Source of the DNA: a virus
Taxonomy: Duplodnaviria > Caudoviricetes
DNA: 64,000 nt
Strand: one strand, 5' to 3'
IMG/VR virus record: IMGVR_UViG_3300033075_001751
Coordinates: 69,959 to 133,958 of that record
Shown here: positions 46,510 through 48,300 of the stretch, piece after piece
Layout: each line of letters begins with the position of its first letter
Numbering within the stretch: the stretch's first letter is position 1
Position numbers and translations under genes: made by a program
The notes under the pieces: model-generated
What the model was told of the DNA's origin: nothing
What the model saw: the letters and a program-made list of their open reading frames with translations, nothing else
Databases searched by the model: none

Positions 46510-47264
46510 ATGGCTAAGACACAAAAAGACGACCAGATCATTGTGCAGTTGCAAGAAGCGGTCGAAAAGAAGAAACGTGAGCTCAAAGCAGTTAATGAGC
46601 CCAATGTGACCAACTTGTCTTTCGGGTTTACTGAATCCCAATCGGACCGGCAAAACATCGCGGTGCAGAATATTGACTGGGTGGTACGCGCACTTGCCTG
46701 GCTCATCATGATGAAGGAATGTTGGGAAAAATCCGCAGGTATTCTTGGAGTCAAAACTGAGTTCAAATGGTTGGGCTACACCTATGCAGAATGGGAGAAA
46801 GACCTGGTGCGACGAGCCGGCAAGATCAATTATGCCGAGGAGAAGGCAAAATTGGAACGCTTGGAAGCACGTTTGGAAGAATTGCTCAGTCCTGATGCGA
46901 AAAAGAAGAAGGAGCTGGACTCCATGATGAAAGATCTTCTTGGCTGATGACCAAATCTGATTACGAGGTCGAGGTGTTTGAAGAATTCATTTGTATCCGT
47001 GATCTCAACATGGGCGGAATGTCGGTTACGAATAACATTGAGTCCGTGATCAAAGAGATTGCTGTTCGGGTTCATAAGGAGCTAGGACAGCCTTTAAGGT
47101 GTTTCAAGCTTTTGTACATGGATTCGGAAAAGACGGTAGACGGTATTCGAACTTGTGATAACCGGTTTCATTCATTCTACGGATTGGGAATGAAAACTTT
47201 TCGGGAAGCTTCACTCAATGCTCTGGGAATGGTCATTGACAAAGAAGGTAACTTGCTGAGTTGA
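46510..47264 (+). CDS. two hypothetical proteins (46510-46947 coiled-coil; 46947-47264)
   Basis: Coupled ORFs. Confidence 0.65.
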
Positions 47265-47274
47265 TGAAAACCGT

Positions 47275-47282
47275 TATATTTG
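47275..47282 (+). promoter_or_regulatory. Bacteroidota sigma-A-type promoter of the RNA cluster
   Basis: TTG-N19-TATATTTG. Confidence 0.65.
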
Positions 47283-47318
47283 CAATTGTTCACAATCGAA
47301 ATTTACGATAAAAAAGGT

Positions 47319-47383
47319 GTCACTTGTAGCTCAGTTGGTAGAGTTGCGGCAGCAGTCGGTGGTTCGAGTCCACTCAAGTGACC
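47319..47383 (+). ncRNA. tRNA-like RNA lacking a normal anticodon arm
   Basis: Acceptor GTCACTTG/CAAGTGAC, D arm GCTC-AGTTGGTA-GAGT, T arm GGTGG-TTCGAGT-CCACT; anticodon arm is only TGC-GGCA-GCA. Confidence 0.7.
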
Positions 47384-47416
47384 TAGTTCTAATTTCTTAA
47401 ATCGTTCTTTGTTAAT

Positions 47417-47969
47417 GGGGCTGAATGGAATCGACAGGATATGATCGATTATGAAGGCATGCAAGGGTGATTCCTTTGAAAGATCAACACTTTTAGTTGG
47501 CAACAACACTTCTTCCCCTGAACTCTCCAGCATGTTTGTTGGAAGCGATGGCGTACTGAACACGAACGAAAGCGTGTTCGCTTTTTCTGCTCCGGTTGCG
47601 CAAGCAGCTTGACACCAGGGAACTCAGTGCCCTTGAAAAGACTGAGTGGTGGATGGGTTAGTGGTTTCCACACCCCCAATTAAGCATGTGATTCCTTTGT
47701 AGTTTGTTGTTTCTCTGGACCCGGGTTTGGTTCGGACCCACACAGTAGGGATACTGTGTTAAAAATCACTTGAATTGCTGGAAAGCTAAGTTTAGTTGCG
47801 TGACTAGATATGCCGATCAGCAGCCAATCCTACTGGAAGAAGTAGGCAGGTTCAGAGACTAGGGATGCTACGGCAAGCCCACAGCAAGTGACACCCAGAA
47901 CGGGTGATGAGATAGTCCAATCCTCTAAGAAATTAGAGATTTTCGGGATAGCGAATCCCGGCAGCTCCA
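47417..47969 (+). ncRNA. ssrA: tmRNA (exons 47417-47727 and 47952-47969)
   Basis: GGGGCTG/CAGCTCC-A acceptor with G3:U70; tag frame 47499-47612 ending AQAA-stop; spliced T arm CCGGG-TTCGAAT-CCCGG. Confidence 0.92.
47728..47951 (+). mobile_element. group I intron (224 nt, no ORF) in the tmRNA T-loop
   Basis: P1 GGGTT/GACCC with U:G at the splice site; P AATTGCTGGAAA; Q TCAGCAGCC; R GTTCAGAGACTA; S GATAGTCC; P3 TCACTT/AAGTGA; terminal G. Confidence 0.92.
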
Positions 47970-48048
47970 CAGTATTTGCGTTGCAATCTCAGTCACGGGA
48001 GCAACGTTCATTCAAAGACAGGAGAAAGTGGCTGATACTCCTGTACCA

Positions 48049-48122
48049 GATCGGGTAGTTCAACGGCGAGGATACCTGGCGTGTAGTCAGGGGTGTTGGT
48101 TCGAATCCAGCCCCGATCACCA
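48049..48122 (+). tRNA. atypical tRNA, nominal anticodon TGT (Thr)
   Basis: Full cloverleaf with encoded CCA, but loop CGTGTAG (G33) and a 3-nt variable loop. Confidence 0.65.
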
Positions 48123-48183
48123 ATTTAGTTTTGGAGTTTAAGCATTAGCGCGTTCTTTCTTGTGCGGTGCAATGCCGCACATT

Positions 48184-48273
48184 GGCGATGTGTAGGTCAA
48201 GAGGTTTATTGAGAAATTATCGGTACCGATAGTGTCTTGTAAATTTCGGGAAGTTCGATTCTTCTCATCGCCA
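48184..48273 (+). ncRNA. tRNA-like RNA with a stemless D region and one long helix
   Basis: Acceptor GGCGATG/CATCGCC-A, T arm GGAAG-TTCGATT-CTTCT, ~19-bp interrupted helix in place of the anticodon arm. Confidence 0.6.
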
Positions 48274-48300
48274 CATTGAAAATTTACTTATTTTCGAATT

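Follow-up and report, generated by a model that had tools for sequence, protein, structure and literature searches.

The window analysed here, a stretch of 64,000 nucleotides, makes up the latter half of an IMG/VR virus record of 133,958 bp (IMGVR_UViG_3300033075_001751), which is rated complete by CheckV. Between positions 47417 and 47969 it carries a phage tmRNA gene in two exons, with an intact group I intron inserted in the T-loop (Table 1). An initial annotation had proposed this arrangement, including the absence of an endonuclease ORF from the intron, and it is borne out by a match to the group I intron family (RF00028), by covariation among relatives and by a truncated match to the tmRNA family (RF00023).

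Table 1. Coordinates of the split tmRNA gene, its intron and an upstream promoter element in the window
Feature	Position	Strand	Basis or remark
Candidate −7 promoter element, Bacteroidota type, TAnnTTTG form	47276..47283	+	seen in sequence; inferred from known consensus
tmRNA exon 1, 311 nt	47417..47727	+	RF00023 3′-truncated match
Acceptor 5′ strand	47417–47423	+	
Tag reading frame (putative start)	47499..47612	+	resume GGC 47499–47501, 37 sense codons, stop TGA 47610–47612 in hairpin
T-stem 5′ strand	47721–47725	+	
T-loop nt 1–2	47726–47727	+	
Group I intron, 224 nt	47728..47951	+	RF00028 83.2 bits; covariation; no ORF
P1	47723–47727/47735–47739	+	U47727·G47735 at cut
P10 guide	47729–47734	+	can pair with first six exon-2 bases (6 bp)
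P2	47740–47746/47753–47759	+	
P3	47766–47771/47886–47891	+	
P4	47776–47781/47817–47822	+	
P5 region	47785–47813	+	
P6	47829–47834/47841–47846	+	
P7	47855+47857–47861/47913–47918	+	
Extra hairpin (P7.1), between P7 and P3′	47862–47880	+	
P8	47892–47896/47902–47906	+	
P9, GAAA loop	47923–47928/47933–47938	+	
Terminal G	47951	+	
tmRNA exon 2, 18 nt	47952..47969	+	direct reading
T-loop nt 3–7	47952–47956	+	
T-stem 3′ strand	47957–47961	+	
Acceptor 3′ strand	47962–47968	+	pairs with 47417–47423 incl. G3·U
Discriminator A	47969	+	CCA not encoded

Portal, large terminase (TerL) and major capsid (MCP) proteins are all encoded in the 134-kb record. Its TerL is ~24% identical to the terminases of Crassvirales, Flavobacterium and Cellulophaga phages, while the best match of its MCP (29%) is to Leptolyngbya phage Lbo-JY46, followed by csAssE-Sib and Cellulophaga phi17:2-like phages. 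On these protein similarities, the phage is acceptably described as a distant member of the crAss-like assemblage. The label ‘crAss-like’ used in the initial annotation therefore holds in the broad sense and fails in the narrow one. A search for sister genomes via TerL returned a single 9-kb fragment, and the public runs that contain the stretch are wastewater and freshwater metagenomes. A gene for SmpB was searched for in the phage and is absent; host SmpB would presumably serve the phage tmRNA.

A search with the tmRNA model in Infernal, which the initial annotation had proposed as a check, matched exon 1 to RF00023 at 47.4 bits (gathering threshold 47; E = 6.4e-18; model positions 1–353 of 374), with the 3′ truncation exactly at 47727. 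This match was obtained when the searched stretch was ended at the predicted 5′ splice site, and its score barely attains the gathering cut-off, in truncated mode only. The alignment ends after the second U of the T-loop, and the 21 model positions left uncovered correspond to the 18 nt of exon 2 together with CCA. Besides the elements listed in Table 1, exon 1 holds a D-loop-like segment, a long P2 helix, PK1 and further pseudoknot-like elements. Its first 23 nt are those of two intron-less phage tmRNAs, L003 and L004, which score 83–85 bits against RF00023.

The 7-bp acceptor stem with its G3·U pair, an alanine identity mark, and the T arm with its 7-nt loop form only across the intron, that is, after the exons are joined. 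The minimum free energy (MFE) fold of the spliced 329-nt form has the canonical tmRNA shape, comprising an acceptor stem, a T arm, a long P2 around a PK1-like region, a tag region with its stop codon in a hairpin, and further pseudoknot-like elements. Across the intron, the T stem is 100% paired in 17 relatives that were partly chosen for pairing, with double changes in two of its pairs. A profile built solely from relatives matched the window in three collinear pieces (matches at 47681–47727 and 47952–47969), in which the adjacent model positions 362 and 363 fall on 47727 and 47952. When relatives were spliced in silico at the same site, ARAGORN called a tmRNA in 11 of 21 constructs.

In the Rfam tmRNA alignment the resume codon of the model falls on GGC 47499–47501, while the tag end and stop are aligned by the tmRNA_permuted model. 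We infer that this GGC is the resume codon, an assignment that could be wrong given a tag of 37 codons against the usual 10. The tag peptide ends in ...VAQAA, and the tags of related phage tmRNAs are long too (~20–25 residues). A 12-nt direct repeat is also found in the tmRNA (47467–47478 and 47688–47699, + strand), each copy lying right after a GCATG. One copy is in PK1 and the other in the 3′ strand of P2, and the two GCATG motifs are themselves the P2 strands, which makes alternative pairings possible.

The group I model, likewise proposed as an Infernal check, matched the region from 47702 to 47939 over its full length (RF00028 positions 1–253; 83.2 bits against a gathering threshold of 50; E = 1e-19), and this match is unique in the genome. 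Exon 1 ends in GGGTT, G47951 is the last base of the intron and exon 2 follows directly; the exon and intron boundaries first given for the locus are exact, base for base. Every structural element named at that time is present (P1 with its U·G pair, P10, P2, P3, P4, P7, the extra hairpin, P8, P9 and the terminal G). No ORF of endonuclease size was found in the insert, since the stop-to-stop frames that overlap it reach at most 70 aa and none lies wholly inside. Among the eight ORFs that flank the intron, a Pfam scan detected no homing endonuclease or nuclease domain.

Covariation was assessed on an alignment of 17 distinct intron copies, each extended by 12 nt of exon 1 and by the 18-nt exon 2, and the structure tested was written from the window's own sequence. 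In this alignment 92.4% of cells are paired, compared with 33–42% when the partners are slid, and both-sided changes occur in 30 pairs; none of 500 shuffles attained any of these measures. Compensatory pairs are found in P2 (6 of 7), P3 (3), P4 (3), P6 (6), P7 (1), P8 (2) and P9 (6). P1 is invariant and the U47727·G47735 pair is kept in 17 of 17 copies, while the four inner pairs of P10 are 88% paired in the relatives, with one compensatory case that involves the exon-2 sequence. The inner pairs of the hairpin between P7 and P3′ co-vary as well. Extra P7.1/P7.2 helices at this place are said to define subgroup IA in the 1990 scheme of Michel and Westhof, and by these criteria the hairpin suggests that the intron may belong to subgroup IA. 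Folded as a single sequence (z = −3.7), the intron yields P2, P3, P4, P6, P7.1, P8 and P9. The intron tail (47943–47949) is also complementary to 47955–47961 in exon 2, and in the MFE fold the two pair into a hairpin that resembles a T arm and encloses the 3′ splice site (47943–47961, + strand). This hairpin would compete with P10 and is unconserved among relatives.

The suggestion that the split defeats standard gene finders was correct. In the intact window, the tmRNA is called neither by ARAGORN nor by Rfam at the gathering threshold. RF00023 gave no match on the whole window or on 47100–48300, where Rfam returned only a weak match to tmRNA_permuted. ARAGORN made no call on the in-silico spliced form either, at default settings or with thresholds relaxed to 70%. 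This silence is uninformative, because ARAGORN also misses the intron-less L003 and L004 despite their Rfam calls; recognition by ARAGORN is a heuristic of the tool and does not define the tmRNA family. Annotation based on ARAGORN and Rfam thus misses intron-split phage tmRNAs and leaves the region blank or mis-annotated, and phage ssrA genes are therefore under-counted.

A survey of phage tmRNAs for alleles with and without the intron, also proposed at the outset, recovered both kinds in one clade. The clade was defined by a 21-nt 5′ end alone and comprised 109 IMG/VR loci, which divided into 74 uninterrupted genes (380–417 nt), 10 split genes, 8 unresolved and 17 truncated loci. The intron is thus present in 10 of 92 resolvable genes (~11%), always at the same T-loop site and with a length of 220–224 nt. 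After removal of the intron, the 10 split genes are 85–99% identical to intron-less sisters, five of them at 97% or more. The best pairs are of equal length, with identities of 0.990 (L043/L103), 0.985 (L016/L137) and 0.985 (L028/L128). Four of the intron-less sisters were scanned and score 97–112 bits against RF00023. Comparative evidence of this kind demonstrates the exact predicted junction, 47727/47952. The survey, the ARAGORN calls on relatives spliced in silico and the joined RNA-library contigs described below are three independent lines in favour of this junction. The T stems of the intron-plus alleles all end in GGG, while about half of the intron-less alleles differ at this point; the uniform ending is explained by the pairing of P1 with an invariant guide. 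At four of the uninterrupted loci (L094, L103, L128 and L137), a GOLLD RNA (RF02032, 174–330 bits) lies ~0.1–1.5 kb from the tmRNA gene.

Bacterial intron-form tmRNA genes were reportedly first described by Williams in 2002. The initial annotation had placed T-loop introns in some clostridial tmRNAs, and they are not confined there: a 2025 catalogue lists 883 unique bacterial intron-form tmRNAs from 21 phyla, with introns at four T-loop subsites (PMC11915505). One of these, ‘position 3’ after the second loop U, was recorded in only nine genomes, all of the class Bacteroidia (PMC11915505). The GGGUU/CGAAU join in the window rebuilds a 7-nt TψC loop between loop nucleotides 2 and 3, which is the same subsite, as compared by the catalogue's description. 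RefSeq viruses were searched for the catalogue, which mentions no phage intron form (PMC11915505), and our literature search for an intron-split phage tmRNA found no report.

The window's gene shares with the bacterial intron-form genes a TψC-loop group I intron in which the −1 U is paired to a G in P1, a terminal G, a P7.1 region, and a short intron of a mostly ORF-less class. Unlike them, it lies on a phage genome instead of a bacterial chromosome. With an intron of 224 nt and a gene of 553 bp, it also falls at the small end of the catalogue, whose intron-form genes measure at least 545 bp and whose introns average 293 nt (PMC11915505). With the uninterrupted phage tmRNAs (L003, L004, L103, L137 and others; RF00023 83–112 bits) it shares a long tag, theirs ending in Ala-Ala or Val-Ala, and a setting in a tRNA gene cluster. 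These genes differ from it in being intron-less, in their length of 380–443 nt against 329 nt spliced, and in tags shorter than 37 codons. The gene form is hence one known from bacteria, here with a phage member that is common in uncultivated phages, and it changes nothing that is known of the mechanism of tmRNA or of group I introns.

The narrow search pattern used to follow the intron further was built on P1 and the P3–P4 region; a first pattern, anchored on exon 2, had matched neither viral contigs nor species genomes. The narrow pattern matched 35 IMG/VR viral contigs and two metagenome contigs. Among 185,579 species genomes it gave two matches, one of which is real; the other (L010) was discarded as a chance match in which Rfam detects no intron. 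The real match (L011; GenBank JBBACR010000001.1) lies on a contig of 425,361 bp that is labelled as belonging to a Candidatus Pacearchaeota MAG. This contig carries a complete intron-split tmRNA and agrees with an IMG/VR viral contig (L031) in length, exon-1 end and intron start; it probably comes from a giant phage that was binned with an archaeon by mistake. Reports of ‘first’ tmRNAs or introns drawn from MAG catalogues can therefore be phage DNA.

Carriers of the intron include near-complete phages of 169, 281 and 425 kb without detectable TerL similarity to the window's phage, as well as a complete TAG-recoded crAss-like phage. L012, L017, L024 (minus strand) and ~12 similar IMG/VR loci, from TAG-recoded crAss-like phages, have the same intron inside a tmRNA gene that is circularly permuted. 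In these genes the 5′ half of the T arm is followed by an intron with a ~205-aa antisense ORF, by exon 2 and, 86–210 nt downstream, by the 5′ strand of the acceptor. A RAGATH-7-associated RNA (Rfam) lies directly upstream of the intron at these loci and may belong to the acceptor piece of the tmRNA; RAGATH-9 and hatchet ribozymes are found farther upstream. In L019, L038, L146 and the L024 group, the terminal G of the intron, right before exon 2, is replaced by A, and these introns are either decayed or use an unusual 3′ splice site.

Bacterial tRNA genes are known to carry group I introns in their anticodon loops, and here an intron of the same family as the window's is also found in a phage tRNA. 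In the cultured jumbo Klebsiella phage Muenster (L047; MT708547.1, ~832–1140), an unannotated tRNA(CAU) is split in its anticodon loop, and a gene for an HNH endonuclease lies ~250 nt downstream. The Muenster intron scores 104 bits against RF00028 and is ~75% identical over ~180 nt to the intron of L016, a relative of the window's gene. In both settings the intron sits in the 7-nt loop of a tRNA-shaped domain and its guide pairs with both halves of the loop, the target being the anticodon loop in one case and, in the window, the T-loop of a tmRNA. To judge by this distribution, the window's intron fits a mobile, phage-borne lineage.

A broader proposal can be put forward tentatively, and we would not yet rely on it: the position-3 T-loop intron may be primarily a phage element, transferred horizontally between the tmRNA and tRNA genes of phages that are not related to each other (crAss-like phages, TAG-recoded crAss-like phages with permuted tmRNA, and jumbo phages of 170–425 kb). 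The few cases listed as ‘Bacteroidia’ or ‘archaeal’ in genome catalogues would then be phage contigs or copies derived from phages, and phages would be the reservoir of tmRNA introns. The loci also offer a natural series, with intron-plus and intron-minus alleles, copies with or without the antisense ORF, losses of the terminal G, and standard next to permuted genes, which is well suited to the study of how group I introns spread and decay.

Contigs from RNA libraries contain joined forms of the gene. Logan metatranscriptome contigs from two studies carry an exon 1 that is ~98.7% identical to the window's and continue directly after 47727 with 18–20 nt resembling exon 2. These contigs show a sister allele without the intron, whether through splicing or because its gene has none, and are no proof that the window's own copy splices. 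That they are the spliced product, so that splicing in vivo would already be documented, is a substantial possibility that we nevertheless do not favour over the intron-less allele of a sister strain. It draws on the exact break at 47727 in contigs of two studies and on one joined contig that ends at the discriminator base, like a mature end. Against it, 3 of the 18 exon-2 positions are unlike those of the window, compared with a difference of ~1.3% in exon 1, one contig overruns the discriminator by 2 nt with letters that are not CCA, and RNA is indistinguishable from DNA carry-over in such contigs. IMG/VR yielded no joined copy of this variant as DNA, which is also counted against splicing, and no close relatives of exon 1.

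Two further contigs are of a different kind. One from a wastewater metatranscriptome (X15), a very abundant RNA, matches 47706–47727 and 47952–47970 and thus has the final 41 nt of the spliced phage tmRNA but nothing else of it. Its record 8, where 47727 is joined to 47952 at a depth of ~1100, was rejected as a spliced product, the upstream part being unlike exon 1; this RNA may come from an uninterrupted tmRNA gene, either the host's or that of some other bacterium. The other, from run X13, matches 47401–47437 and 47714–47971 and has a tmRNA 5′ end, an intron and an exon 2 that are ~97% identical to the window's, while the whole tmRNA body is swapped for 290 unlike letters. Either the X13-type gene is a mosaic or the middle of the tmRNA diverges quickly.

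The region 47417–47969 is thus best explained, with high confidence, as a standard (non-permuted) phage ssrA gene whose T-loop is interrupted by a group I intron that is intact, has no ORF and belongs to the self-splicing type; the preferred reading of this intron is that of a selfish mobile element. The primary transcript would be inactive as a tmRNA until the 224-nt intron is removed. The internal guide would pair with the last five bases of exon 1 (P1, with U·G at the cut) and, as P10, with bases 1–6 of exon 2, and guanosine-initiated self-splicing would join 47727 to 47952. The join would create the T arm and allow the 7-bp acceptor stem with the G3·U alanine identity pair to close. The 329-nt product, once CCA has been added, would be charged with alanine and, with host SmpB, would rescue stalled ribosomes, adding an unusually long tag of ~37 residues with an Ala-Ala end. 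The intron itself would belong to a phage-borne lineage that colonises tmRNA and tRNA genes at their T-loops and anticodon loops, represented here by a copy without an endonuclease gene.

It is improbable that the intron is instead kept for a benefit, either by timing the maturation of the tmRNA or by breaking a site for integrases, homing nucleases or CRISPR spacers. Splicing is indeed needed before function, and the statement that it gates maturation holds only trivially, the T arm and acceptor stem being unable to form beforehand; no sign of regulation was found. The GGG ending of all intron-plus T stems, against about half of the intron-less ones, could point to lineage-specific site constraints, yet the pairing of P1 with its invariant guide accounts for it. 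The presence of the intron in ~11% of the clade's genes, next to near-identical intron-less sisters, is the sporadic pattern of a mobile element. For the proposed shielding of the site from integrases, nucleases and CRISPR no evidence was found. Two viral contigs (L005 and L006), phage fragments that agree fully with the window's spliced form in the T arm and the acceptor 3′ strand, had been considered as att sites for their uninterrupted 3′ end; they were rejected, having no integrase and being permuted intron-less tmRNA genes.

That the gene is decaying, with an intron that no longer splices or an RNA that no longer tags, is equally improbable: the rejection of the spliced form by ARAGORN, the atypically long tag, the lack of SmpB in the phage and the A-ending introns of L019, L038 and L146, which indicate that decay occurs in the lineage, would fit a relic or a tRNA-like decoy against host trans-translation, but the U·G pair, terminal G, P7 pocket and all core helices of the window's intron are intact, as are the acceptor, G3·U, T arm, P2 and open tag frame (with its Ala-Ala-stop in a hairpin) of the tmRNA, and near-identical exon 1 is covered by RNA-library contigs in three runs from the two studies. 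A decoy of this sort has been described in mycobacteriophage DS6A, whose CDS-less tmRNA interferes with host trans-translation (PMC11915505).

A candidate promoter element lies upstream of the split gene. Bacteroidota promoters are known to follow a consensus with a −7 element, and the candidate of this type in the window (Table 1) stands 37 nt upstream of a tRNA-like element that precedes the tmRNA; a stricter two-box Bacteroidota promoter pattern gave no match. The tRNA-like element itself (47320–47382, + strand) is 63 nt long, ends 34 nt 5′ of the tmRNA and scores 41.2 bits with the Rfam tRNA model, with no call by ARAGORN. Its acceptor, D and T arms are intact, and a mini-hairpin of 2 bp with a 4-nt loop stands in place of the anticodon arm. 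Possible identities for it are a processing signal, a decoy or a pseudogene.
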